Shown: one piece after another, positions 1,198 to 48,173 of the stretch
Layout: each line of letters opens with the position of its first letter
Position numbering within the stretch: the stretch's first letter is position 1
DNA from: an uncultured Bacilli bacterium
GTDB lineage: Bacteria > Bacillota_I > Bacilli_A > RF39 > UBA660
Assembly (NCBI GenBank): GCA_947629075.1
Contig: CANRCI010000001.1
Coordinates: forward strand, 1-48,467
Length of the DNA: 48,467 bases
Direction: 5' to 3'
Made by a program: the position numbers and the translations under genes
The notes under the pieces: model-generated
What the model was told of the DNA's origin: nothing
Database searches by the model: none
The model's input: the letters and a program-made list of their open reading frames with translations, nothing else

Positions 1198-1226
1198 AAT
1201 ATAGTAGAATAGAGGAGATGTTTATT

Positions 1227-2150
1227 ATGAAAATCCTAGAATATATGAGTTTTGATTTGGGTTGGTTTACTACTGTTCCTGGTATGATGATTACTGGCGG
1301 TATTGTATTATTATTGATTGGTCTAATAATATTTATTTTAAGCGGTAAGAAAAAGGATAGTGAGGAAGCTCCTAAGGAAGTTAAAGCAGAAGCTACTACT
1401 GATACAACTCCAGTTAGTGATGTACAAGTAGAAGTTCCTTCGGTTCCTGAAAGCGAGCCAGCACCAGCAGTTGTTGATGCTCAACCTGCACCAGCACCTG
1501 AAGTAGCACCTGTTAGTGTTGAACCAGTTGCTAGTGTTACACCAACTGAAGTAGCTACACCTAGTGATGCTAATGCCAGTGCTGAAGCTGTGGCTGAAAT
1601 TCCGACAGTAGAAGCAGCACCTGTTGCAGACGTTCAAGCGCCAGCAGAAACACCAGCACCAGAAGCAGCACCTACTGAAGCTGCACCAACAGTTCCAGAA
1701 GTTGCTCCAGCAGATGCACAAGCTATCCCAGCAGTTGAAGAAGTAAAACCGGTGGTAGAAGAAGAAAAGCCTGCAGTAGAAGCAGCACCTGTCGAAGAAG
1801 CTAAACCTTCAATTTATGGAGGAGCAGATCCACATTTAGATGCTGTGAAAGCTACTGAAGAACCACGTCAGATTTATGGTGGAGCCGATCCACTTGAAAA
1901 TACTGGTGCCTTACCTCGTGTTGAAGTTCCTGCTTTTGAAGAAGAAAAACCACAAGAACAACCAGCTGTTCCAACAGTAGAAGAGCCAAAAGCAGAACCA
2001 GTTGAAGAGAAAAAAGAAGAAGTAGTTATTCCGGCTGTCAGTGAAGAACCTAAGGAAGAAGTTGCTACACCTAGCGTAACAGTTCCAGCTGGAGAAGAGA
2101 AGAAAGAGGAAGCTCCAAAGACTGACGATATTGAAACATTAGAATTTTAA
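1227..2150 (+). CDS. Membrane-anchored low-complexity Pro/Ala/Glu/Val-rich protein
   Basis: N-terminal hydrophobic helix (GMMITGGIVLLLIGLIIFILSG) followed by ~270 aa of PAPE/VEE-type low complexity with a duplicated IYGGADP motif. ATG1227 has AGGAG 9 nt upstream; ATG1218 abuts the SD. Confidence 0.6.
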   Translation: MKILEYMSFDLGWFTTVPGMMITGGIVLLLIGLIIFILSGKKKDSEEAPKEVKAEATTDTTPVSDVQVEVPSVPESEPAPAVVDAQPAPAPEVAPVSVEPVASVTPTEVATPSDANASAEAVAEIPTVEAAPVADVQAPAETPAPEAAPTEAAPTVPEVAPADAQAIPAVEEVKPVVEEEKPAVEAAPVEEAKPSIYGGADPHLDAVKATEEPRQIYGGADPLENTGALPRVEVPAFEEEKPQEQPAVPTVEEPKAEPVEEKKEEVVIPAVSEEPKEEVATPSVTVPAGEEKKEEAPKTDDIETLEF

Positions 2151-2650: not shown

Positions 2651-3079
2651 ATGGAAAATACCAAGAAATCTTATATCTTTGAATATCAAAACGAAAATGA
2701 TTTTAGAAAGAAAGAAAGAACAGTCAGAAAATATAACATGTTAGCTTATAAAAAGTTGACATTTAGTTATTATCCTGAACTTAGAAAAGGTAACTTTTTA
2801 GGTGAATTAGTTTCAGTTAATAAAAAAGACAATACTAAATCATACGAATTAAAGTTACCAACTGATGATTTATTTGTAAAAGTTCATGGAGAGATTCGTC
2901 TTCATTATACTGTTTACGAAGATAAGAACATCATTCTTTTAACTAACATTACACCAGAAGGTATCTTAGATGAAGGACATCGTGCTGAGTTAGGTACTTA
3001 TAAAGGTGTTATGATTTCTAAATCAAATCCCGAAAAAGATATGTTCAAAGTAAACTTGTTAAATATGTTACAAAAATAG
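2651..3079 (+). CDS. Hypothetical protein, possible RelE/ParE-like fold in the C-terminal half
   Basis: ORF track 2597..3079. ATG2651 is preceded by AAGGGG. Segment LFVKVHGEIRLHYTVYEDKNIILLTNITP resembles the RelE/ParE core pattern; no HTH or antitoxin partner seen. Confidence 0.35.
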   Translation: MENTKKSYIFEYQNENDFRKKERTVRKYNMLAYKKLTFSYYPELRKGNFLGELVSVNKKDNTKSYELKLPTDDLFVKVHGEIRLHYTVYEDKNIILLTNITPEGILDEGHRAELGTYKGVMISKSNPEKDMFKVNLLNMLQK

Positions 3080-3153: not shown

Positions 3154-3723
3154 ATGATAAACAGAGAAGATGGTTTTACCCTTATTGAACTTATGGCAGT
3201 TGTAATTATTTTAGGTATTCTTATGTTGATTGCTGTTCCAAATACAACAGCTATTCTTGAAAAGAATAAAAAAGATGCAATGATCGAAGATGCTAAAAAA
3301 TTAATTGCTTTAGCTCAATATCAAGTTAAGAAGGATAAAAATATTGAATTGCCAGAAACAGCAGATGAAGCAATAGTAATTACTCTTCAATATATGAATA
3401 CTGATAATTTGAATAAAACTAATTATTCTACTTATTATATAAAAGATAGAACTTTCGTGGCAATTAAGAAAAATGGAGATAAATATATCTATTATGCCAA
3501 TTTAGTATCTTGTAATACTGATACTTGTAATGATGAAAAATATGGAATCAATCTCGCTACTGAAGAACAATTGAGATCTGATGCCAGATTTGATTTAGTT
3601 AAAAATACTGAACAATTACAAGATTTTTTGATCAAAGCTAATACGAGTGGTGGCTATGAAATAAGTACGGTTTTAACTAGTCCATCAGGAGTTTTAAAAG
3701 CTACTAGAATAGATGTTTATTAG
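3154..3723 (+). CDS. Type IV pilin / pseudopilin (class III signal peptide), divergent from the tandem copies
   Basis: MINREDG|FTLIELMAVVIILGIL: short basic leader, Gly-1, Phe+1, Glu+5, hydrophobic helix. Cys pair at SCNTDTC. Confidence 0.8.
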   Translation: MINREDGFTLIELMAVVIILGILMLIAVPNTTAILEKNKKDAMIEDAKKLIALAQYQVKKDKNIELPETADEAIVITLQYMNTDNLNKTNYSTYYIKDRTFVAIKKNGDKYIYYANLVSCNTDTCNDEKYGINLATEEQLRSDARFDLVKNTEQLQDFLIKANTSGGYEISTVLTSPSGVLKATRIDVY

Positions 3724-3745
3724 AGAGTTTAACTCTCTTTTTTTT
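3722..3745 (+). terminator. Rho-independent terminator
   Basis: AGAGAG / CTCTCT stem followed by a T7 tract. Confidence 0.65.
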
Positions 3746-3782
3746 CTTTAATGTAAATTTAAAAAAATTAAATTGATAAATA

Positions 3783-3811
3783 TTGACTGTGAATTTTGGG
3801 TATGCTAATAT
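3783..3811 (+). promoter_or_regulatory. Sigma-A-type promoter of the pilin array
   Basis: TTGACT (3783-3788), 17-nt spacer, TAATAT (3806-3811). It lies inside the ORF-track N-terminal extension of copy 1. Confidence 0.5.
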
Positions 3812-3842
3812 AAAATTATATGATAGGAAGGAAAGTGAAGGT

Positions 3843-4427
3843 ATGAGGAAGAATCAAAAAGGGTTTACATTGATCGAGTTGCTAGCTGTTATCATCATTT
3901 TAGGACTTTTAATGGCAATCGCAATTCCAAGTGTAACTCGTTATATTACACAATCAAGAAAGAAGACATTAGTTAATTCAATCGACAGTTTCATTTCCGC
4001 TGTAACAACAGCCGTAAATGAGCAAGAATTTGGAGCATTATCTAACCAAGAAAACATTTACTTTATACCGGTTTCAAATGATTCATCAAAGAGTTGCATC
4101 GAATTAGAAAAAGGTGGAACAGATCCGTTTGGAGTTTGGCAAGAAGCATATGTTGCAGTTCACTATGATGCAGAAAAGTTCAGTTATGATTACTATTTCA
4201 CATTCTATGATGATGCGGGATATGGTATGAGTTTAACTAAGAGTGATGATATAGCTACGAGTGGTAGTGATATCAAAAACCCAAGTCCAGTAAAGAGCGG
4301 TACAATCGTTAAGAATACAGTAGGGGCTAAAAAGCCTAAAGTAGGTGCAGCAGCTGCTGAAAACGCTACTCCTATGAAAATTCCTGTTGGTAATTGTAAA
4401 GTAGCTAATGCAACACCTGCTACTTAA
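3843..4427 (+). CDS. Type IV pilin, tandem paralog 1 (194 aa)
   Basis: MRKNQKG|FTLIELLAVIIILGLL class III signal peptide. Cys85 and Cys185 could form a D-region disulfide. ATG3843 follows a GAAGG SD. Confidence 0.85.
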   Translation: MRKNQKGFTLIELLAVIIILGLLMAIAIPSVTRYITQSRKKTLVNSIDSFISAVTTAVNEQEFGALSNQENIYFIPVSNDSSKSCIELEKGGTDPFGVWQEAYVAVHYDAEKFSYDYYFTFYDDAGYGMSLTKSDDIATSGSDIKNPSPVKSGTIVKNTVGAKKPKVGAAAAENATPMKIPVGNCKVANATPAT

Positions 4428-4469
4428 TAAATAGTTAGTTTGTAATAAAAAAATTATTTGGAGGTCAAA

Positions 4470-5060
4470 GTGAGAAAGAATCAAAAAGGATTTACTTTAA
4501 TCGAATTGCTTGCCGTTATCATTATCTTAGGACTTTTAATGGCAATCGCAATTCCAAGTGTAACAAGATACATTACACAATCAAGAAAGAAAACGTTGGT
4601 TAATTCAATCGATAGTTTCATTTCTGCTGTAACAACAGCTGTAAATGAACAAGAATTCGGTGCATTGTCTAACCAAGAAAATATTTACTTTATACCAGTT
4701 TCAAACGACTCAGCAAAAAGTTGTGTTGAACTAGAAAAAGGTGGAACTGATCCATTCGGAGCTTGGAAAGAGGCTTACGTAGCAGTTCACTATGATGCCG
4801 ATAAATTCAGTTACGATTATTATTTTACATTCTATGATGATGCTGGATATGGAATGCAATTGACTAAGAGTGACGATATAGCTACAAGTGGTAGTGATAT
4901 CAAAAATCCAAGTCCTGTTAAAAATGCAGATATCATAAAAAATACTGTAGGAGCTAAAAAATCCAGTGTAGCAAGTGCAGCAGATGCTAATCCGTTAGTA
5001 CTATCTACTACTGATTGCAAAGCTTCAACTGCTAAAGCTGGACCAGTAACAGTTAGTTAA
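4470..5060 (+). CDS. Type IV pilin, tandem paralog 2 (196 aa, GTG start)
   Basis: Same N-terminal 151 aa as the other copies with a few substitutions. GGAGG SD 5 nt upstream of GTG4470; the TTG4458 of the ORF track sits in the SD. Confidence 0.85.
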   Translation: MRKNQKGFTLIELLAVIIILGLLMAIAIPSVTRYITQSRKKTLVNSIDSFISAVTTAVNEQEFGALSNQENIYFIPVSNDSAKSCVELEKGGTDPFGAWKEAYVAVHYDADKFSYDYYFTFYDDAGYGMQLTKSDDIATSGSDIKNPSPVKNADIIKNTVGAKKSSVASAADANPLVLSTTDCKASTAKAGPVTVS

Positions 5061-5094
5061 TATTTGATAAAAAATAAATTATTTGGAGGTTAAA

Positions 5095-5685
5095 ATGAGA
5101 AAGAACCAGAAAGGTTTTACTTTAATTGAGTTGCTAGCCGTTATTATCATTTTAGGACTTTTAATGGCGATTGCAATTCCTAGTGTAACGAGATACATTA
5201 CACAATCAAGAAAAAAGACATTGGTTAATTCAATCGATAGTTTCATTTCTGCAGTAACGACAGCAGTAAATGAACAAGAGTTCGGTGCATTATCTAATCA
5301 AGAGAAAATTTACTTTATACCGGTTTCAAATGATTCAACGAAGAGTTGTGTTGAATTAGAAAAAGGTGGAACAGATCCATTTGGAGTTTGGCAAGAAGCA
5401 TATGTAGCAGTTCACTATGATGCCGATAAATTCAGTTATGATTATTATTTCACATTCTTTGATGACGCTGGATATGGTATGAAATTGACTAAGAGTGATG
5501 ATATTGCTACAAGTGGTAGTGATATCAAAAACCCAAGTCCAGTTAAACATGCTGATATTATTTCAAACACTGTAAGTGCCAAAAAAACTAGTAAGGCAGA
5601 TGCAGCTAATGCTGATGCGGTAGTACTATCTGCTAAAGATTGTAAAGCTGCAACTGCTACAAGCGGGCCAGCAGCAACTAGCTAA
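5095..5685 (+). CDS. Type IV pilin, tandem paralog 3 (196 aa)
   Basis: As above; ATG5095 follows GGAGG. Confidence 0.85.
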   Translation: MRKNQKGFTLIELLAVIIILGLLMAIAIPSVTRYITQSRKKTLVNSIDSFISAVTTAVNEQEFGALSNQEKIYFIPVSNDSTKSCVELEKGGTDPFGVWQEAYVAVHYDADKFSYDYYFTFFDDAGYGMKLTKSDDIATSGSDIKNPSPVKHADIISNTVSAKKTSKADAANADAVVLSAKDCKAATATSGPAATS

Positions 5686-5719
5686 TATTTGATAAAAAAT
5701 AAATTATTTGGAGGTTAAA

Positions 5720-6289
5720 ATGAGAAAGAATCAAAAAGGATTTACATTAATTGAGTTGCTTGCTGTTATCATTATTTTAGGACTTTTAATGGCAATCGCA
5801 ATTCCAAGTGTAACAAGATACATTACACAATCAAGAAAGAAAACGTTAGTTAATTCAATTGATAGTTTCATTTCTGCAGTAACGACAGCAGTAAACGAAC
5901 AAGAGTTCGGTGCATTATCTAATCAAGCCAATATTTACTTTATACCAGTTTCAAATGACTCATCAAAAAGTTGTGTTGAACTAGAAAAAGGTGGAACTGA
6001 TCCATTCGGAGTTTGGCAAAAAGCATATGTAGCAGTTCACTATGATGCCGACAAATTCAGCTACGATTATTATTTCACATTCTATGACGATGCAGGATAT
6101 GGTATGCAATTGACTAAGAGCGATGATATAGCTACAAGTGGTAGTGATATCAAGAACCCAAGTCCAGTAAAAGCTGATAATATTGTTACAAATAGTGTAA
6201 ATGCTAAGGCAAGTAGCGCACCTGGTGCTGCCAATGCTACTGCTAAAGAGATTACTGTTGCAGGTAATTGTAAAGTAAGTGCATCTTAA
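5720..6289 (+). CDS. Type IV pilin, tandem paralog 4 (189 aa)
   Basis: As above; ATG5720 follows GGAGG. Confidence 0.85.
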   Translation: MRKNQKGFTLIELLAVIIILGLLMAIAIPSVTRYITQSRKKTLVNSIDSFISAVTTAVNEQEFGALSNQANIYFIPVSNDSSKSCVELEKGGTDPFGVWQKAYVAVHYDADKFSYDYYFTFYDDAGYGMQLTKSDDIATSGSDIKNPSPVKADNIVTNSVNAKASSAPGAANATAKEITVAGNCKVSAS

Positions 6290-6308
6290 TAACATTAAAT
6301 TAAACGTT

Positions 6309-6335
6309 AAAGATTTAGTTATCTAAATCTTTTTT
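6309..6335 (+). terminator. Rho-independent terminator closing the pilin array
   Basis: AAAGATTTAG / CTAAATCTTT 10-bp stem, 4-nt loop, T tract. It is the only hairpin terminator between 3811 and 6335. Confidence 0.75.
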
Positions 6336-6381
6336 CTTTGTTTAAAAAATAGTATAATATTAGTTGTTGAGGAGTGGTTAT

Positions 6382-14288: not shown

Positions 14289-16787
14289 ATGAAAAAATTA
14301 AATCGAAATGATTATTTAAATATATTTATTTTAGTATTATTGTTGTTATGTTCATTAGTGATTTCCTTCGGTACTAAATATGGTTTTGGTTCAGTTATCG
14401 ATTGGAGTTGTCAGCATTATAAAATTCCCGAATATTTTAGAGAATTATTTTATAGTACCGGAAATTTGTTTCCCAACTTTGCTTTCAATCTTGGTGGTGG
14501 ACAGAACATCTATTTTTTATCTTATTATGGCCTTTTTAATCCGGTAATTATGTTTAGTTATCTATTGCCATTTGTAAGTATGCGAACTTATATAACTTTT
14601 AGTAGTATTGCTTTAGTAATCTTAAGTATATTTTTACTTTATAAATTTATAAATGATAAATATGACTCCAAGTTAGCCTTTTTAGGATCATTTATTTTTA
14701 TTTGTTCAGCTCCCATAGTTTTTCATCTTCAAAGACATATCATGTTCATAAATTATATGCCTTTTCTAATTATGGCTTTTATGGGAGTAGATGAGCACTT
14801 TAAGAATAGACACGATTTTCTTTTGATCATCAGTGTGACGTTGGTCATTTTATCTAGTTACTTTTTTAGTGTTTCAGCTTTAGTAGCTATTAGTATCTAT
14901 GCCGTTTTTTGTTATTTAAAATTTGAACGAGAAATCAACTTTAGAACTTTTTTTGTCAATGCTTTGGCATATTTAAAACCGATTGTAATTGCAATTATGA
15001 ACAGTGCAATTCTTTTAATTCCAACGTTTATTGCACTTTTATCAGGACGTAGTAAGACTAATAATGATACATCGATATTGAGTTTAATCATACCGGAGTT
15101 TAATACCGGTGATATATTGTACAAACCATATACCACTGGACTTTCAATGATATTGATATTTGCTATAATCTGGTTTGTCGTAAATAAGAAAAAAGAAAAT
15201 AAATTTTTAGGTATAACTAGTTTATTAATAGTTTTATTTCCAATTTTTATTTATCTGTTAAACGGATTTATGTATGTCGAAGGTAAGGTTTTAATTACTT
15301 TTTTACCTCTATTTATTTTAATGATTATCGAGTGTTTAAACGAGATGTTTAAGACCAAGGAGAAATTAGTTTTAAGTACTGGAATTTTTACGGCGGTCAG
15401 TTTGATTTACCTATTGGTCAATTTTAGAAGTATTAGTGATTATCTAATTTTATTCGATTGTCTATTTTTAATACTTAGTCTTTTAATTTTGATAATTTAT
15501 GATAAAAAGCAATATTTAATAATATCTATTGTTTTAGTATCGATTGGTACATTTTTAAATGCTAGTTTAACTAATAAATTAGTGGGTAGAGATGATTATT
15601 TATACGATTATGATGAAATTGTAGAATATATTGATAAGTTGAGTAGTGAAGACAATTTATTTCGCGTTAATTATTTGACTAAACATTTAGATTCATCTAA
15701 TAAGATTTATGGTAGTAATCATTTGACAAGTAGTATCTATTCATCGTTATCTAATAAGTATTATAAAGATTTTTATTATAATGAATTGTACAATGAAGTT
15801 ATGCACAGGACAACAGGACAGATGGGAAATACGGAAAATTTACTCTTCAATATCCTGATGTCCAATCGTTACATTTTAGCAGAAAACTTAGATAGTATTG
15901 CTTATGATAAAGTCGATGCAATAAAAACTGGTGATGGTAAGACGATAAACGTTTATGAAAATGATAATGTTTTACCGATTATCTATGCATCTAATAAGAT
16001 TATGTCCTATGACGATTACGAACGTTTAAATGATGTTGAAAAAACTCTAGCTAATTTAAATTATGTCGTCGTAAATGGTGATGAGAGTACGGATTATTCT
16101 TTTAATTATGGAAAAGTAAATTATGATAAGACTTATCAATCACCTGATAAGAAACATATCGTTTTAGAAAGCGATGACGATTTGGAGAATAAGATCGTTT
16201 TAATCAGTTTTAAACTCAACAGCAATAATTCTTGTAGGATTGGAGATAATGCGATAACGATTAATGGTATCTTTAATAAACTTAGTTGTAAGAGTTGGAA
16301 ATACCACAATAAAAACTATAATTTTAAGTATGTCATTGCTGGTCAAGATAACAGTAAACTAGATATTACACTAGGTGATGGCAATTACGACATTTCAGAT
16401 TTATCTTTTTATTGGTTAGACTATAGTGATATCGAAAAGTTAAATGACGATGTTACGGCCGTAAATATTTCTAAAACTCGTAACAATGGTGATATAATAG
16501 AAGGAGAAGTAAAAATAAGTGATTCTTCTTATATCAAGACTTCTATTCCATATGACAATGGCTTTAGGGTATATGTCGATGATGAAGAAGTACTTGCTGA
16601 AAGAGTCAATGAAGACTTTTTAGGATTTGAAATTAGTAAAGGGAGTCATCACATAAAAATAGTTTATACGGCTCCGGGAGAAAAAGTTGCTAAAATGATA
16701 ACTTTTATAGGAATAACTATTAGTTTTGTCAGTTTGTATTTAGAATTTGGAATGACTAAAGCTAAAAGAAAAATAAAATTTGAGTGA
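14289..16787 (+). CDS. YfhO-family polytopic membrane glycosyltransferase-like protein
   Basis: 832 aa: ~13 hydrophobic segments, then a large extracytoplasmic C-terminal domain and a final TM. Followed by a GtrA-family gene. Confidence 0.6.
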   Translation: MKKLNRNDYLNIFILVLLLLCSLVISFGTKYGFGSVIDWSCQHYKIPEYFRELFYSTGNLFPNFAFNLGGGQNIYFLSYYGLFNPVIMFSYLLPFVSMRTYITFSSIALVILSIFLLYKFINDKYDSKLAFLGSFIFICSAPIVFHLQRHIMFINYMPFLIMAFMGVDEHFKNRHDFLLIISVTLVILSSYFFSVSALVAISIYAVFCYLKFEREINFRTFFVNALAYLKPIVIAIMNSAILLIPTFIALLSGRSKTNNDTSILSLIIPEFNTGDILYKPYTTGLSMILIFAIIWFVVNKKKENKFLGITSLLIVLFPIFIYLLNGFMYVEGKVLITFLPLFILMIIECLNEMFKTKEKLVLSTGIFTAVSLIYLLVNFRSISDYLILFDCLFLILSLLILIIYDKKQYLIISIVLVSIGTFLNASLTNKLVGRDDYLYDYDEIVEYIDKLSSEDNLFRVNYLTKHLDSSNKIYGSNHLTSSIYSSLSNKYYKDFYYNELYNEVMHRTTGQMGNTENLLFNILMSNRYILAENLDSIAYDKVDAIKTGDGKTINVYENDNVLPIIYASNKIMSYDDYERLNDVEKTLANLNYVVVNGDESTDYSFNYGKVNYDKTYQSPDKKHIVLESDDDLENKIVLISFKLNSNNSCRIGDNAITINGIFNKLSCKSWKYHNKNYNFKYVIAGQDNSKLDITLGDGNYDISDLSFYWLDYSDIEKLNDDVTAVNISKTRNNGDIIEGEVKISDSSYIKTSIPYDNGFRVYVDDEEVLAERVNEDFLGFEISKGSHHIKIVYTAPGEKVAKMITFIGITISFVSLYLEFGMTKAKRKIKFE

Positions 16788-16797
16788 GGTAGTAAAC

Positions 16798-17250
16798 ATG
16801 GAAAAAAAGTTAAAAAAATATTATCGTCTTATAAGAGAAATATATACTGATTATAAAGAGGTCATCAATTACTTGATAGTTGGTGTTTTGACCACTGTAG
16901 TTAGTATCGTCTCTTTTGCTATATTTCAAAATTTTGCATTAGGTTTTAGTCTTTTTGGTCTAACAGTAAAAAAGTATATGGTTTCAACAGTTCTATCTTG
17001 GATTGTTGCCGTTTTATTCGCCTATGTAACTAACAGAAAATTTGTCTTTGAAAGTCATTCTAAGAAAGTTGTTTCCGAATTTATCAAATTTGTCACAGCT
17101 CGTATTATGTCTTTATTGGCTGAAATTGTATGTATGTACATTTTGATCGATTTGATGCATAGTGATGAGATGATTGCTAAAATATTAGTTCAAGTTTTAA
17201 TAATAGTATTAAATTATGTCTTTAGTAAATTGTTCGTCTTTAAAAAATAA
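16798..17250 (+). CDS. GtrA-family membrane protein
   Basis: ~150 aa with four hydrophobic helices and the YLIVGVLTTVVSIVSF.. pattern. GAGGTAG SD before ATG16798. Confidence 0.65.
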   Translation: MEKKLKKYYRLIREIYTDYKEVINYLIVGVLTTVVSIVSFAIFQNFALGFSLFGLTVKKYMVSTVLSWIVAVLFAYVTNRKFVFESHSKKVVSEFIKFVTARIMSLLAEIVCMYILIDLMHSDEMIAKILVQVLIIVLNYVFSKLFVFKK

Positions 17251-41619: not shown

Positions 41620-41663
41620 GTTAAATTATTAGTAATTATTAACATTATTTGGGGGATGATATA

Positions 41664-42803
41664 ATGGATGATATTTTTAATTATTTAACCGATTTATTTG
41701 ATGATGTTCCAGTACCAGAAGTTAAGATTACTGTTGATCACGATTTAGATAAAGAGGAATTTGAAAATGTTAAAGAATTAATTTTATCAACCCCTGGTAT
41801 TACTGGTGTCGATTTTAAAGGAACAGTATCTGTTAATTTTATTGAACAAATTAAATGTCTTTTAGAGATTTCACCACTAGTAGATGATAAAAGTGTTGAA
41901 AAAATTGTTTTAGTAAATTTTAATCGTAAAGAATTAGAAAAACTGTTAAATTTAAATTATGTCAATCCTGAAACTTGGAGTATTGCTTATAAATATGAAG
42001 ATAATTCTTTTAAAGTAGCTCTTCTTCCCGAGGTGAGAAAGATCGAAGAATACATTTCTTTGATAAGTAGCAGTTTAAAGAAAAATTTAACTCCTTTAGA
42101 ACTGATAAAAGAGTTGTATGACTTTGTTAAACTGTTGGAACCTAAGGAAGAAGCATCTAATCTTCTTCAGGATATAATTAATACTCGTACTGCTAGTAGT
42201 TATGGATTTAGTTATTTACTACAGGAGTTGTTGGCGCGATTTAACATTCCTTCATATATTATTGATGTATCGCGTGATAAAAAATTATTTCATTCTCTAT
42301 TAGTTGAAATAAATGATGACAAATACCTAGCTTCAGGGATGTATCTTTTCGATCCTGAGAGTGATGCTGTACCAAAGCATTCTTATCGCAATGATCTAGC
42401 AAGGCATGTAAATTACAATTTTTTTGCTCTTAGCTGTGAAGAGGTTCAGCGACTAGTTTATGGTGATAAATTTGCAGGAATCATGGGAGCACTGATGATC
42501 AGTGATGAGGAGTTTGGCTTTAGAAAATATCGCAGGCGTAAAAACATTCGCGAAGTTACTAAGATAGAGAATACTTTCGATACTAATTATTTAGGCTTGA
42601 AAGAAAAAATAAACACAACTAAAAACATTCCTCAAGATATGAAAGTGAAATTGTTTACTAGTAATGTCAAAAAAGAACTGATCAAACTAAATAAAAATAT
42701 CGATGTAAAACATATTATTAAAGAGAATTATTTAGTTAAACGCCAAGAAATGTTTATAGAAGAGAAAAAAGAGATAGAACCGGTAGATATTTATGATATT
42801 TAA
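41664..42803 (+). CDS. Hypothetical protein, possible degenerate transglutaminase-like core
   Basis: ASSYGFSYLLQELLARFNIPSYIIDV .. HSLLVEI .. GMYLFDPESD parallels the Cys-His-Asp transglutaminase-like core, with Ser where the Cys would be. Confidence 0.35.
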   Translation: MDDIFNYLTDLFDDVPVPEVKITVDHDLDKEEFENVKELILSTPGITGVDFKGTVSVNFIEQIKCLLEISPLVDDKSVEKIVLVNFNRKELEKLLNLNYVNPETWSIAYKYEDNSFKVALLPEVRKIEEYISLISSSLKKNLTPLELIKELYDFVKLLEPKEEASNLLQDIINTRTASSYGFSYLLQELLARFNIPSYIIDVSRDKKLFHSLLVEINDDKYLASGMYLFDPESDAVPKHSYRNDLARHVNYNFFALSCEEVQRLVYGDKFAGIMGALMISDEEFGFRKYRRRKNIREVTKIENTFDTNYLGLKEKINTTKNIPQDMKVKLFTSNVKKELIKLNKNIDVKHIIKENYLVKRQEMFIEEKKEIEPVDIYDI

Positions 42804-42833
42804 AACTTAACGGTTTTATTTTTTTTGGCCTTA

Positions 42834-42842
42834 TGGTATAAT
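42834..42842 (+). promoter_or_regulatory. Extended -10 promoter element upstream of the tad-like operon
   Basis: TGgTATAAT. It lies inside the ORF-track extension 42825..42869. Confidence 0.4.
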
Positions 42843-42869
42843 TTAATTATTAAAATAGGGGTGAAATTT

Positions 42870-43226
42870 ATGCCTAAAACTAATAGTAAAGGACAAGCTT
42901 TAGTAGAATTTTTACTTATCTTGCCAATTTTTCTGTTCATTCTTTTGGCAGTCGTAGATTTTGGCAGAATTTTTGTTACTAGAAGTAATTTGGAATCCCT
43001 TTCTAGTGAAGCAGTAAAGCTCTATGAAAAAGATAGTAATTATGATACCGTCAACAAAGAATTAAAAGAAATATCATCAGATGAGTTTGTTTTGTCTATT
43101 GACAAAAACGGTAATAAAGTTAAGATTGTCGTTCAACGTGATGTAAGCATTATGACACCTGGTTTACAACAAGTTTTAGGTAAAGTTTACAAAGCTAGTA
43201 GTGAAAGAGTGATTTTAGATGAATAA
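42870..43226 (+). CDS. TadE-like pseudopilin
   Basis: MPKTNSKG|QALVEFLLILPIFLFILLAVVDFGRIF: TadE N-terminal motif with Gly-1 and Glu+5. Confidence 0.75.
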   Translation: MPKTNSKGQALVEFLLILPIFLFILLAVVDFGRIFVTRSNLESLSSEAVKLYEKDSNYDTVNKELKEISSDEFVLSIDKNGNKVKIVVQRDVSIMTPGLQQVLGKVYKASSERVILDE

Positions 43227-44208
43227 TAATCGTGGACAGGCATTAGTATTATTTGTTCTTTTTCTACCAGTATTGATGCTCATCTTAGCGTGGTCAATAG
43301 ATACAGTTTACTTAAATTACGAGAAACAAAAATTAGATGGAATAACTACTTCAATTATGGAGAACTTAAAAAATTACCCAGGAGCCGATGAAAAAGTAAT
43401 CACTGAACTTTTTGAAGATAACGATCGCGATATTGAAGTTTTAAAAAGTAATGTTCAAAGCGATAAAATAAGTATTTCCTTAAAAAAAGAAATTCCCAGT
43501 TTATTTGGAAGAATTATAGGTTACAATACTTATTCATTAAAACTAGAAAAAGATTACGATTATGAAGCATTAGACAGCATTTACGCTCCAGTTAACAATG
43601 GCCTTTACTTACATTTTACAGGTATAGATGCGTTAAATGATGACAATGAATTAGTTGATCGAACTGGTATAAACAAAATCGATTATTTCAATTTAAGTTG
43701 GGATAAGAAAGACCATTATTATAGTTTTAATGGTAAGGATTCACGCATCACCAATAGTATCGATTTTGAAAACGCAACCAACTATTTTACTATTCAAATG
43801 TTGTTTAGAACCAAAGATGTTAACAATTACAATAAAGTCTTAGTTTTAGATTTTTACGATATAAAAGACCAAGTTTTAAAATTGACTTTTAGGATTAATA
43901 ATGGTGTTTTAGAAGTATATGACGATTCAGAAAAAATTGGTGAGACAAAAGTAAATCCAATTTCAAAATACTATGTTGAGATAACCAAGGATGACAATGG
44001 TCTAAACATATATTTAGATAATGAATTGTTAGTTAGAAAAGATATTGGTTTCACTTTAAAGTCAATCATTACTAATATCGGAATGGAGAAAGATGATAAT
44101 TCGTCATTTGATGGTGGTATATACACATATCGCATTTATAATAGACTTTTAACCGATGAAGAGAGAAGTAAAAACTATAGTAATGCTTTAAAAGAGTATA
44201 CATCTTAA
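43219..44208 (+). CDS. TadG/TadE-like N-terminal anchor fused to a LamG (concanavalin A-like lectin) domain
   Basis: MNNNRG|QALVLFVLFLPVLMLILAWSIDTVY. The C-terminus has the LamG hallmarks ..YYVEITKDDNGLNIYLDNELL.. and FDGGIYTYRIYNRLLTDEE. Confidence 0.7.
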   Translation: MNNNRGQALVLFVLFLPVLMLILAWSIDTVYLNYEKQKLDGITTSIMENLKNYPGADEKVITELFEDNDRDIEVLKSNVQSDKISISLKKEIPSLFGRIIGYNTYSLKLEKDYDYEALDSIYAPVNNGLYLHFTGIDALNDDNELVDRTGINKIDYFNLSWDKKDHYYSFNGKDSRITNSIDFENATNYFTIQMLFRTKDVNNYNKVLVLDFYDIKDQVLKLTFRINNGVLEVYDDSEKIGETKVNPISKYYVEITKDDNGLNIYLDNELLVRKDIGFTLKSIITNIGMEKDDNSSFDGGIYTYRIYNRLLTDEERSKNYSNALKEYTS

Positions 44209-44213
44209 ATATA

Positions 44214-44222
44214 TGATATAAT
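44214..44222 (+). promoter_or_regulatory. Possible internal extended -10 promoter before the ATPase genes
   Basis: TGaTATAAT in the 37-nt gap. Confidence 0.3.
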
Positions 44223-44245
44223 TATTAAGATAGATAGGTGATAAT

Positions 44246-45025
44246 ATGGAGATTAAAAAAGGGAAAATATTTACAATTACATCGATGAAAGGTGGCGTAG
44301 GAAAGACTACTTTCGTCATGAGTTTAGCTAAAATTTGTGAAGAAGAAAAATTGAAAGTACTAATTATGGATTTAGATTTTTATACTGGAAATGTTGCTTT
44401 TTCATTGAATGCTAAAACTAAAGGAAGTATCTATAACCTATGTGATGATATGGCCAATAATCGTATTAAATATGGTGTAACTGATGAATATATCCACAAG
44501 ATAAATGATTATATCGATATCGTATCCTCACCTAAAGATCCTAGAGATGTAACTAAGATAGATGATAAATACATCGATGCCATTCTTAACAATTTAGTAT
44601 ATAAATACGACGTAATTTTAATAGATACTAACCATGTACTAAATGAACATAAAATGGTCGCGTTTGATTTAAGTGATAAGATAATTGAAATACTTACCAA
44701 TGATGCTTTTGATTTACAAGGAAATAAAACTTTTATGGCAATATGTAAAAATATGAAAGTAGATAATGTTATCTTAGTCCTTAATAATTCGATTGATGAA
44801 CGAAAGAGATATTTTTCGATGTATGATATAAAAAATATTTTAGGTAGAAATGTCAATTATATTATTCCTACTAGTTTTTATTTAAAAAATTATCAACAGA
44901 TGGTTATGGATGGCGATATTTTGAATTTTAAGAACAAATTATCATCAGCTGGTAAAAAAGATTATTCTAAATTCAGAGAGAATATGAAAAAAATATTATT
45001 AGAGGGTGGTAAAGATGGCAAATAA
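44246..45025 (+). CDS. TadZ/CpaE-like ParA/MinD-family ATPase (no receiver-like domain)
   Basis: Deviant Walker A TSMKGGVGKTT and LIDT Walker B region. Positioned directly upstream of cpaF. Confidence 0.7.
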   Translation: MEIKKGKIFTITSMKGGVGKTTFVMSLAKICEEEKLKVLIMDLDFYTGNVAFSLNAKTKGSIYNLCDDMANNRIKYGVTDEYIHKINDYIDIVSSPKDPRDVTKIDDKYIDAILNNLVYKYDVILIDTNHVLNEHKMVAFDLSDKIIEILTNDAFDLQGNKTFMAICKNMKVDNVILVLNNSIDERKRYFSMYDIKNILGRNVNYIIPTSFYLKNYQQMVMDGDILNFKNKLSSAGKKDYSKFRENMKKILLEGGKDGK

Positions 45026-46445
45026 ATGGTTAGAAGAATTTAATTTCGTATCCCATGATAAAGAAGTAAGTTCTGAAAGTGTTCAAAGCGATTACGAAGT
45101 ATTTAAAGATAAAGAATTACTAGATAAATTTAGAACAGTTATCATTCAAGATTTAATAGATAATAGAATACCTGATGGTAAACTTCTTACACAATACATT
45201 AATGAAGAAATTGATAGAATTACTGATGGTTATGATTTAACTAATTTAGAGAGAAGTCATATCTTTAATTTGATCGAGAATGAAGTAAATGGTTATGGAC
45301 CTTTAACAGAACTTTTAGATGATAAAAATATTACGGAAATCATGGTCAATTCTGCTGATGAAATATATATTGAGGTCGATGGTCAATTGATTCGTGATGA
45401 AAGTGTATCGTTTATCAATGAAGAACATATCATTAGGACTATTCAAAGAATTATTCAACCGCTAGGTAGAACGATTGATTCAACTAATCCGATGGTCGAC
45501 TCTCGTCTGCCAGATGGTTCTAGAATTAATGCTGTCATTCCGCCACTTTCGGTTAAGGGACCAGTTGTTACTATTCGTAAATTTAAGGATAGTATGGATA
45601 ATATTGAGAACTTAATTGGTAATGGTAGTATGACTCCATATATGGCTAGATTTTTAAATGCTTGTGTCAATGCCAAGTTGAACATTTTAGTTTGTGGTGG
45701 TACTGGTAGTGGTAAGACGACCCTTCTAAATGTTTTATCCAACTTTATCGGTTCAGGAGAACGTATTATAACGATCGAGGATGCGGTAGAGTTAAGACTT
45801 CATCAGGAACACGTCATTCAACTGGAGACAAGAAATGTTAACTACGATAAAGAAGGAGAAGTTACAATTCGTGATTTAGTTCGTAACTCACTTCGTATGC
45901 GTCCGGATAGAATTATCGTCGGTGAAGTTCGTGGTAGTGAAGCTTTCGATATGTTACAAGCTATGAATACAGGACATGATGGAAGCTTGACAACGCTTCA
46001 TGCCAATGGACCAGCTGATGCTCTAGATAGACTTGAAACGATGATTTTGATGAGTGGAATAGAAATTCCCCTAAAGGCAATCCGTGGTTATATTGTCAAT
46101 GCTTTAGATATCGTTGTCAATGTCGAACGTCTAAGTGATGGTCGAAGAAAGGTAACTTCTATTTCTGAGATTACGGGATTTGATGGTGATGAAATAGGAT
46201 TGAAAGAAATATTTGCCTTTAATCAGAACGGTGTAACAGATAACAGAGAGGTTATCGGTGAATTTGTTCTATATCCATATATTCCAAAAGTATATAGTAA
46301 AATTAAAAGTCGCGGTGTCGATGATGTCGACGATATTTTTGAAGAATTACAAAAACAAATCGATGCTGAAAACAAAAAGAAAACTAAAGATGGAAAAAAG
46401 AAAGAGACTAAAAAAACGACCAAAAAGAAAAGTGTAAAAAAATAA
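45015..46445 (+). CDS. CpaF/TadA-family secretion ATPase with a polylysine C-terminal tail
   Basis: [12 protein letters not shown] Walker [18 protein letters not shown] and [13 protein letters not shown] motifs. The tail is [25 protein letters not shown]. Confidence 0.9.
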
Positions 46446-46461
46446 AAAAAGGAGGTAGACC

Positions 46462-47469
46462 ATGAATAGTGTTGGTGTGTATACAATTCAGATTCTTACA
46501 ATATTAACCCTTCTAGTAATTGTTTTTCGATTATTGAGATTGAATTCATCCCTTAGAATGGTTAGACGCTTTACTCCTTATACAGTAGAAGAATTAGAAG
46601 ATCGCGATGAGACGTTATTCGATTATCTATATCGAAGATATCAGGTGTATCGCAAAAAGATTTCTAAACAGTTCAAAAAGTCTAAATTGTTATTAGATTA
46701 CAGTAAAAAATATGAGAAGTATTGCGATAATAGTAAGATCATAAGAGATGAAGCAATGGACTACATTTCTGATAAATTTGTCGTCGGTTTTGTGGCGATG
46801 ATTGTCATTATGTTCTCTGACATATTTCAATATCAACCAATAACTTTTTTGCAGTTGTTGACATTTTATCTAATCGGATTTTTTATACCAGATTTGGTTT
46901 TAATATCTAAGAATAAAATTCGTGAGAAGTTAATTGAAAGAGATATGTTACACGCGATCATAATCATGAATAATGCTTTTAAATCAGGAATGAGCATTAT
47001 GCAAGGTATATATATGGTTTACAATGAGTTAGATGGGCCGATTAGTGATGAATTCAAAAAGATGTATATCGACATTACTTTTGGACTTAATATGGATACC
47101 GTATTTAAAAGATTTGCTGATCGCGTTAAGACAAAAGAAGCAAAATACATCACAACTTCACTTACGGTACTAAATAAGACTGGTGGTAATATAGTTCAAG
47201 TATTCTCATCAGTTGAAAGAAATTCGTTTACCCGTAAGAAACTACGTGAAGAATTAGGAGCTATTTCAGCATCTAGTGATGCCATTTTCAAGATGTTAGC
47301 AATTATCCCAATATTCTTAATCGGCATAATTTTGATGCTCAATCCGACATATTTTTCACCACTTTTCACAACTAGTGAAGGCTTACTAATCCTTGGCCTA
47401 TTAATCCTTATTTATGTCCTATACATATTTATAGTTAGAAAAGTTATGAAAGTAGAGGTTGATATTTAA
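46462..47469 (+). CDS. TadB-like type II secretion F-domain membrane protein
   Basis: N-terminal TM, T2SSF-like cytoplasmic domain (AFKSGMSIMQGI..), C-terminal TMs. Confidence 0.75.
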   Translation: MNSVGVYTIQILTILTLLVIVFRLLRLNSSLRMVRRFTPYTVEELEDRDETLFDYLYRRYQVYRKKISKQFKKSKLLLDYSKKYEKYCDNSKIIRDEAMDYISDKFVVGFVAMIVIMFSDIFQYQPITFLQLLTFYLIGFFIPDLVLISKNKIREKLIERDMLHAIIIMNNAFKSGMSIMQGIYMVYNELDGPISDEFKKMYIDITFGLNMDTVFKRFADRVKTKEAKYITTSLTVLNKTGGNIVQVFSSVERNSFTRKKLREELGAISASSDAIFKMLAIIPIFLIGIILMLNPTYFSPLFTTSEGLLILGLLILIYVLYIFIVRKVMKVEVDI

Positions 47470-48173
47470 TGAATAGAAATAATTCTCGACTTGCATATCG
47501 TATATATAGTAGGAAAGAAATAGAAAAATATCAGCGAAAAATCGATTTATTTGGCTATGGAAAGAGTTATGACGCAACTATTTTTCTAAATATTAGACTT
47601 CTTACTTCCGCTTTCTTGTTTTTTATGATATTATATATATTCGAGTTGGGATACGTCTTAGCACCTATTCTTACCGTTTTATATTATTATTTCTTTCCTT
47701 ATTTTGTAATTGATCGAAAATTACAGAAGAGAAGTGATAAATTAGATAATGATGCGATGTATTTCTTTGAAGTTATGACTCTATCAGTTGAAACTGGTAG
47801 AAATTTAAAAACAGCTTTAGAGCTTACAGCTAATACGGTCGATAGTGAATTATCTGATGAATTCAAACAAACGTTAAAAGAAGTAAGATATGGTAAAAGC
47901 TTAAATGAAGCTTTGGATGATTTGAAGAGAAGAATCCCATCTGATACAATTAATAATATTATTCTTAATATTTCACAGTCTAATATTTTTGGTAATAGCA
48001 TTATCGAGACGATGTATAATCAAATAGACTATATAAGAGATAGACAAATAATGAGAGCAAAAGCTAGTATTAGCAAGGTACCATTAAAAGTCTCAGTAAT
48101 TTCTGTACTTTTTTATATACCTTTAATAATGTTATTGATTTTATCGCCAGTAATAATAGAATATTTTAGTTAG
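47469..48173 (+). CDS. TadC-like type II secretion F-domain membrane protein
   Basis: T2SSF-like domain ([23 protein letters not shown]..) flanked by TMs. Start overlaps the tadB stop. Confidence 0.75.

Follow-up and report, generated by a model that had tools for sequence, protein, structure and literature searches.

The window analysed here is the whole 48,467-nucleotide (nt) stretch of contig CANRCI010000001.1 from an uncultured Bacilli bacterium, and its segment 3783-6339 reads as a single operon made up of four paralogous type IV pilin genes whose products may be interchangeable subunits of mosaic filaments, an interpretation to which we give about an even chance. What the window holds is a larger array of a known tandem-pilin system in an uncultured lineage, and it reveals no new kind of machine. 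Should all four proteins prove to share a filament, no other report would name so many co-assembled major pilins.

Pilin genes of the array

Four prepilin open reading frames (ORFs) lie head to tail on the + strand, with starts spaced by 627, 625 and 625 nt.

3843-4427, + strand: pilin copy 1, 194 amino acids, variable tail from about 4293
4470-5060, + strand: pilin copy 2, 196 amino acids, GTG start, variable tail from about 4920
5095-5685, + strand: pilin copy 3, 196 amino acids, variable tail from about 5545
5720-6289, + strand: pilin copy 4, 189 amino acids, variable tail from about 6170

The start positions, their spacing and the open frames of 189 to 196 codons had been given in a preliminary description of this DNA, and they matched both the ORF listing and the alignment, with the start codon of copy 2 corrected to GTG, not ATG. 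The automatic ORF list runs each frame of the array upstream to a TTG codon, and it is the alignment of the four copies that fixes the true starts; the public gene call for copy 1 (P0002, 212 amino acids) would place its start inside the promoter.

The hallmark of type IV pilins is a short basic leader ending in Gly, followed by Phe at +1, Glu at +5 and about 20 hydrophobic residues, together known as the N-methylation motif. This motif is found in all four copies, each of which carries the leader and N-terminus MRKNQKG/FTLIELLAVIIILGLLMAIAIP and passes the curated cut-offs of PF07963 (38.7 bits in comparison to 21.2) and TIGR02532 (32.7 to 32.8 bits in comparison to 16.3), which bears out the intact class III signal peptide (MRKNQKG/FTLIEL) previously read in each copy. 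The matches to the ComGC and GspG equivalogs were limited to the N-terminal 50 residues or so and did not reach the cut-offs, with 29 to 30 bits in comparison to 75 for ComGC and 37 to 39 bits in comparison to 88.85 for GspG. Pilins of the Flp/Tad (type IVc) class are very small, 40 to 70 amino acids, and carry the Flp motif G/xxxxEY; the array copies, at 189 to 196 amino acids and with G/FTLIE, do not fit this class, and the sole Flp/TadE-like motif in the window is that of a TadE-like ORF at 42825. Searches of the window for prepilin motifs and partial pilin copies returned nothing beyond the array and a fifth prepilin gene, pilin X, described below.

Transcription signals

The array is best read as a single co-transcribed operon, a reading well supported by computation, because a conserved promoter precedes copy 1, the spacers contain neither a promoter block nor a hairpin, and a terminator follows copy 4. 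The signals, all on the + strand, are as follows.

3783-3811, + strand: sigma-A-type promoter of the array, -35 TTGACT, 17-nt spacer, extended -10 TGcTAATAT
3826-3831, + strand: probable Shine-Dalgarno sequence of copy 1, GGAAGG, within the conserved leader ATAGGAAAGGAAG
4428-4469, + strand: spacer 1, 42 nt, GGAGG at 4460-4464, no promoter block and no hairpin, fold z -0.78
5061-5094, + strand: spacer 2, 34 nt, GGAGG at 5085-5089
5686-5719, + strand: spacer 3, 34 nt, GGAGG at 5710-5714
6309-6339, + strand: intrinsic terminator, AAAGATTTAG-TTAT-CTAAATCTTT followed by a T-run

The promoter scan alone was not informative, with 27 sites in the window in comparison to 25.3 in shuffled sequences, and the site at 3783-3811 scores 9 of 12 in it. 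This site falls exactly on the invariant TATTGA (-35) and T.TG.TA..AT (extended -10) blocks upstream of the pilin genes at four related loci (L004, L006, L115 and L116), an agreement across four other species that supports the single sigma-A-like promoter proposed earlier, and the leader TTATAAAATAGGAAAGGAAG is likewise conserved in the upstream alignment with four other species. Each copy had also been credited with a Shine-Dalgarno sequence of its own. This holds for copies 2 to 4, where GGAGG sits 5 nt before the start; for copy 1 the cited GAAGG (3837-3841) lies just 1 nt before the ATG, and the likelier sequence is GGAAGG at 3826-3831, which aligns with the leader of the relatives.

The inter-copy spacers folded no better than shuffled sequences (z -0.3 to -0.8), in agreement with the earlier observation that no hairpin terminator separates the copies. 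The hairpin at 6309-6332 with its T-run gave -11.1 kcal/mol (z -3.74), and the terminator is near-identical, as an ortholog, to the one following a pilin gene in L116; a terminator after copy 4 therefore stands, but the word strong that had been attached to it is too much for so AT-rich a hairpin. No riboswitch or other RNA was found near the array by Rfam, so that cyclic di-GMP control of the type of C. difficile pilA1 is not expected here.

Divergence and selection among the copies

Tandem Repeats Finder, whose maximum period is 500, reported nothing, and alignment and blastn were therefore used instead. The self-alignment, which the preliminary description had proposed as a check, showed the repeat array, with DNA units that are 84% to 90% identical over 515 to 624 nt. 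The proteins are 85% to 88% identical overall and 96% to 97% identical across their first 145 mature residues. Among the copies there is hardly any change in residues 1-150, the globular head being almost identical as well, and the last 45 or so amino acids are diverged. To describe this contrast, nonsynonymous (dN) and synonymous (dS) divergence was calculated by the Nei-Gojobori method, with the core taken as codons 2-150 (447 nt). The core showed dS of 0.42 to 0.94, dN of about 0.02 and dN/dS of 0.025 to 0.037, in comparison to dN of 0.28 to 0.60 and dN/dS of 0.24 to 0.58 for the tails. Codons 2-55, which cover the signal peptide and the helix, had no amino-acid change in spite of 9 to 22 nucleotide differences per pair.

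The core dS values together with the low dN/dS ratios argue that the duplicates are old and that each is under purifying selection. Every copy appears to be maintained as a working coding sequence while its tail diversifies, and with a start, a Shine-Dalgarno sequence, a signal peptide and a low core dN/dS in each, the copies look like four functional genes, as had been proposed, and not like one expressed gene with silent cassettes. The identity of the core within the window is probably kept by selection and not by recent conversion: the runs test of informative sites gave p 0.03 and the longest shared runs gave p 0.05 to 0.86, none of them corrected for multiple testing. The 40 nt at 5058-5097 (stop, spacer and start) are 100% identical to 5683-5722, with flanking coding sequence that differs at many synonymous sites.

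The contig derives from a metagenome-assembled genome (MAG), and this is the one ground for suspecting an assembly artefact, in which strain variants were concatenated or a repeat was mis-expanded and which the preliminary description had named as fatal to its own claim. We regard such an artefact as extremely improbable, since the copies differ at 36 to 59 of the 447 core nucleotides, their tails are unrelated and the longest identical run between any two of them is 71 nt, so that short reads can resolve the copies, and since the independent assemblies of relatives show tandem copies at the same locus.

Predicted structure

Type IV pilins share a lollipop fold, with an antiparallel beta-sheet head against which the alpha-1 helix of about 50 residues packs. 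For copy 2 the AlphaFold2 model, made from a 30-sequence alignment (mean predicted local distance difference test score, pLDDT, 73.8), has a helix at residues 10-59 followed by strands at 71-76, 99-109, 114-123, 127-133 and 174-177. The region around Cys183 (residues 171-190) is modelled with confidence (pLDDT 85 to 88), and residues 141-170 are not. Across 30 family members C85 is invariant and C183 nearly invariant, and the tail of about 45 residues spans C183, the second of these two cysteines, which suggests a C85-C183 disulfide tying the C-terminal strand to the head. Sequence matches in the PDB were all to pilins, S. sanguinis PilE1 (8pfb) among them, and covered the N-terminal helix only. 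No recognisable added domain was found by Pfam in the tails of the window copies.

Related loci

The array family gave 1757 matches in a large protein search, with lengths of 180 to 340 amino acids and variable C-termini, the few named ones coming from 'Bacilli bacterium' MAGs. A query consisting of head and tail found 277 representatives in a set of 1.84 billion proteins, many of which are longer and modular, and no Pfam model covers the head family. Dockerin, BspA-type LRR (LRR_5) or PBP5_C modules are carried by homologs, and such members are 280 to 730 amino acids long. A metagenome scan returned no closer relatives and no copy-number variants, and the literature searches on this clade and pilins, and on concerted evolution of pilins, found nothing relevant.

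Four sister species (L004, L006, L115 and L116/L117) share the gene order of the window with two array-type copies, here called Y, in each, a syntenic two-copy locus that had been overlooked. The shared order is methyltransferase, pseudouridine synthase, SpoVS, orf139, pilin X, the pilin Y copies, nfo, PBP, L33, EF-P and SpoIIIAH. In L008 and L009, compared for their pilin genes, pilin X is followed by one Y copy. The four-copy array would accordingly appear, from this synteny, to be an expansion of the two-copy state at the same chromosomal locus. The paralogs cluster by genome, and the Y core is 70% to 82% identical between species and more conserved than pilin X. Tandem arrays of two to four paralogous pilins recur in the clade, as in L014, L017 (one plus three), L020 and L022 (one plus two) and L064. 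Of these, L014 (339-8940), from a human-gut Bacilli MAG, has four tandem pilins of about 687 amino acids with BspA-type LRR that are 63% to 71% identical, and L064 (1654-7165), from an Erysipelotrichia MAG, has the nfo/PBP flank, a T2SSE ATPase, a 154-amino-acid prepilin and four tandem pilins that are 41% to 65% identical.

The pattern of a conserved core and a diverged tail is also present in L004, L006, L115 and L116. In L115 (10001-11321) the two tandem cores have 0 of 447 nucleotide differences and the tails are unrelated (dN 0.55, dS 1.0), and in L004 the core dS was 0.089 in comparison to a tail dS of 0.85; this pattern marks gene conversion with a sharp boundary near codon 150-155, of which L115 is a clean case. 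Homogenisation of dispersed orphan copies with an array was considered for L001 and L115, contigs of one metagenome sample, and was rejected, the two being only about 81% identical in nucleotide sequence. The spacer between the copies of L004 is 25 nt long and operon-like.

Pilin X and the gene upstream of it

The earlier inventory of four pilins was incomplete, as a further prepilin gene, the fifth and a divergent one, is found 120 nt upstream of the array. Its product shares about 25% identity with those of the array.

3154-3723, + strand: pilin X, 189 amino acids, MINREDG/FTLIEL, above the cut-offs of PF07963 and TIGR02532
3722-3746, + strand: terminator-like hairpin (3722-3738) and T-run after pilin X, -7.4 kcal/mol, scan match

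Pilin X is single-copy and syntenic in relatives, with orthologs in L004, L006, L008, L009, L115 and L116, and at each of the syntenic loci it has a promoter and a terminator to itself. In the window, the terminator-like hairpin at 3722-3746 would end the transcript of pilin X and separate it from the array. Three transcription units are accordingly recognised in the region, orf142, pilin X and the four-gene array, of which orf142 and pilin X are each closed by a hairpin.

The 142-amino-acid gene (2651-3079, + strand) lies directly upstream of pilin X in every case and has no Pfam or NCBIfam match; its protein is 88% to 91% identical across species whose neighboring pilins diverge far more. 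Its promoter at 2541-2569 is a perfect 12/12 TTGACA-17-TATAAT with TG, and a hairpin terminator follows the gene. At 1218-2150 (+ strand) the window encodes a 310-amino-acid protein with one N-terminal hydrophobic segment, a long low-complexity region rich in Pro, Ala, Glu and Val and no Pfam match, and relatives hold a similar-sized unannotated gene at this position.

Comparison with known systems

In S. sanguinis, two or three adjacent near-identical major pilins co-assemble into heteropolymeric pili (PMC6497953, PMC10628169, PMC11121087). PilE1 and PilE2 are 78% identical, have identical alpha-1N segments and are found at a ratio of about 4:3 in stochastic heteropolymers (PMC6497953, PMC10628169), and strain CGMH010 has three major pilins, PilA1-PilA3 (PMC11121087). 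The preliminary description had called a co-transcribed quartet of such genes unusual, which is an overstatement given the two to three tandem near-identical major pilins of S. sanguinis and the recurrence of arrays in the clade. The array resembles PilE1/PilE2 (strain 2908) and PilA1-PilA3 in being composed of adjacent near-identical pilins (78% to 94% in S. sanguinis) in a monoderm member of the Bacillota, and in the identical N-terminal helix, the differences in S. sanguinis lying in surface loops and at the C-terminus. The gene features by which heteropolymeric type IV pili are recognised, namely adjacent pilins, identical alpha-1N and high identity, are all present here, with codons 2-55 invariant at the protein level and 85% to 88% identity overall. 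It differs from S. sanguinis in that there are four copies, the genes are outside a pil assembly cluster and co-assembly is predicted from the genes alone, and also in the mature protein of about 187 amino acids, whose head family lacks a Pfam model and whose variation is confined to the tail of about 45 amino acids.

In Neisseria, the pilS copies are promoterless and 5'-truncated, and pilE is the expressed locus. The array resembles pilE/pilS in having several pilin-related sequences whose N-terminal part is conserved and whose C-terminal part, near a conserved Cys, is hypervariable, and, as seen in the relative L115, in gene conversion of segments; unlike pilS, the array copies are complete, with start, Shine-Dalgarno sequence and signal peptide. 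A silent-cassette system of the pilE/pilS type was rejected on the four complete copies and on finding no silent fragments elsewhere on the contig. In Moraxella, type switching by Piv depends on inverted repeats flanking a pilin segment and a site-specific recombinase. An invertible element of this type was also rejected, as only weak AT-rich inverted matches were found and no recombinase domain was present in the neighboring ORFs.

Modular type IV pilins use the pilin module as a scaffold for C-terminal additions (PMC8179133). Homologs of the array core that carry dockerin, LRR_5 or PBP5_C resemble the modular pilins PilB and PilC of S. sanguinis in this respect, whereas the window copies carry short, poorly conserved tails only. 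In comparison to the arrays of the sister MAGs (L004, L006, L115, L116 and L064), the window has the same flanks, the same head family and the same pattern of conserved core and diverged tail; the differences are in copy number (two Y copies there, or four more divergent ones in L064, in comparison to four here), in the promoter and terminator given to each copy in L006, L115 and L116, and in the T2SSE ATPase adjacent to the array in L064.

Proposed mosaic filaments and alternative explanations

From the sequence we infer that the genes are co-transcribed and that their products are processed and co-assembled with the tails exposed at the surface. All four precursors would be cleaved by a prepilin peptidase whose gene lies elsewhere, and with identical leaders and polymerisation helices one peptidase and one assembly machine would treat the four proteins as equivalent. 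Given the sameness of their assembly interfaces (the 7-residue leader and the N-terminal helix, with no amino-acid change in codons 2-55), the subunits would be interchangeable and would probably be built at random into the same filaments, so that four tail chemistries would form a mosaic on the surface of the fibre. Stochastic mosaic co-assembly is the simplest expectation by analogy, following the model of S. sanguinis PilE1/PilE2, and if it is true the heteropolymer model extends to an uncultured, small-genome gut lineage.

Several points weigh against this interpretation. The assembly machinery has to be assumed, as Pfam and tblastn searches of the 48 kb returned no gene for PilB, PilC, PilD, PilM-O or ComG. 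Foldseek of the whole copy 2 model against the PDB returned no match at E<=0.001, and the membership of the predicted head in the pilin fold depends on the order of secondary-structure elements only. In three of the four syntenic relatives (L006, L115 and L116) a separate promoter and terminator serve each Y copy, with spacers of 107 to 117 nt, and independent regulation thus seems to be the commoner state in the clade. Bulky C-terminal modules, a trait mostly associated with minor or tip pilins (PMC8179133), are also frequent in homologs of the pilin core, and pilin X could be the major subunit.

It is improbable, though the best placed of the other functional explanations, that pilin X is the major subunit and the four Y proteins are low-abundance accessory pilins (tip or display) serving as adhesive or antigenic decorations. 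The tip is the place generally assumed for modular pilins (PMC8179133), head-family members elsewhere carry dockerin, BspA-type LRR and PBP5_C modules and reach 280 to 730 amino acids, and pilin X is kept as a single copy that has a promoter and a terminator to itself at all the syntenic loci; against these stand the short tails of the window copies (about 45 amino acids, no added domain), a Y core that is more conserved between species (70% to 82%) than X, and the four copies, conserved extended -10 promoter and consensus GGAGG, which suggest high output. The copies could also be alternative major pilins that are not co-assembled, filaments being dominated by one copy through mRNA processing, stability, translation or growth conditions. 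The separate promoters and terminators of the copies in L006, L115 and L116 would allow such independent control, and in S. sanguinis an identity of 94% does not make PilA1 and PilA3 functionally equivalent (PMC11121087), but the window copies are not separated by any promoter block, terminator, riboswitch or invertible element, and we consider this explanation quite unlikely. Dosage amplification, in which four genes raise the output of an abundant structural protein and the tail differences are neutral drift, would fit core proteins that are almost identical and tails that are poorly conserved throughout the family. The tail dN/dS is nevertheless below 1 (0.24 to 0.58), the Cys and the surrounding strand are kept in every copy and predicted with pLDDT of 85 to 88, the core dS of 0.4 to 0.9 marks the copies as old, and the relatives keep the same core with different tails even where the core DNA is 100% identical, which makes dosage as the sole explanation unlikely by a wide measure. 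The reading of the array as a recombination substrate, with gene conversion or unequal crossing-over shuffling tails and copy number to give antigenic or phage-receptor variation, draws on L115 (0 of 447 core differences beside tails of dS 1.0), on L004 (core dS 0.089 in comparison to 0.85 for the tail), on the copy number of two in relatives and four here, and on the blocks of informative sites (runs test p 0.03) and the identical 40 nt of spacer sequence in front of copies 3 and 4. Support for recombination is strong in L115 and weak in the window (p 0.03 to 0.08). We hold it to be very doubtful for the window itself, where the core dS of 0.42 to 0.94 speaks against recent homogenisation, the mosaic tests are weak (p 0.05 to 0.86, uncorrected for multiple testing), no silent cassettes were found elsewhere on the contig, the neighboring ORFs include no recombinase gene and inverted repeats are limited to weak AT-rich matches.

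A wider proposal that builds on mosaic filaments, and that we offer tentatively as the less likely outcome, is that the locus is, in this gut and rumen clade of Bacilli, an evolvable display system, in which tandem expressed pilins with an identical core and diverging or swapped tails or modules, in arrays that change in size (2 to 4 here), form mosaic pili. The core would be kept by gene conversion in some lineages and by strong purifying selection here, and the surface repertoire might be tuned against phage or host immunoglobulin A without silent cassettes and unlinked from the assembly genes. The comparative series, with one to four copies, monocistronic or operon, and with the core homogenised or only selected, forms a natural experiment on how a constant polymerisation interface goes together with a varying exposed surface.

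Assembly genes and other genes in the window

Type IV pilus genes of the Firmicutes studied so far cluster together (PMC6916266). Within the window, the T4a assembly genes (PilB, PilC, PilM-O and PilT) were not found clustered with the pilins; Pfam and tblastn gave no PilB, PilT or PilC homolog apart from a Tad ATPase at 45006, and no Peptidase_A24 gene was found, the PilD/ComC type of prepilin peptidase that cleaves and N-methylates type IV pilins. The earlier remark that no PilB, PilC, PilD or PilMNO genes flank the array is true for the whole 48 kb, but it passed over both pilin X and a Tad-type locus.

41649-48173, + strand: Tad-type (type IVc) pilus locus, running to the contig end

This locus comprises TadE-like genes at 42825 and 43219, a ParA/TadZ-like ATPase at 44246, the T2SSE ATPase at 45006 and T2SSF genes at 46462 and 47469; one of the two TadE-like proteins carries a laminin-G-like domain, and no Flp-type pilin ORF for the locus was found in the window. 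T4a-type machinery exists in the broader group, because a 397-amino-acid T2SSE ATPase adjoins the homologous array of L064 on the opposite strand, which ties the locus to an assembly ATPase, and because in L053 a PilC homolog and a prepilin peptidase of the A24 family are encoded close to a large pilin.

A further observation concerns the segment 33319-36423 (+ strand) and the proteins P0098, P0102 and P0104. The window encodes a protein with cohesin and cadherin-like parts and an Ig-like polysaccharide deacetylase, and members of the same pilin family elsewhere in metagenomes have C-terminal dockerin domains, which hints at a possible cohesin-dockerin coupling to pili. A YfhO-family membrane protein adjoins a GtrA-like protein at 14289-17250 (+ strand), a pair that is usually tied to glycosylation of cell-surface polymers. 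The pilin tails, rich in Ser, Thr and Ala, may be linked to this pair.

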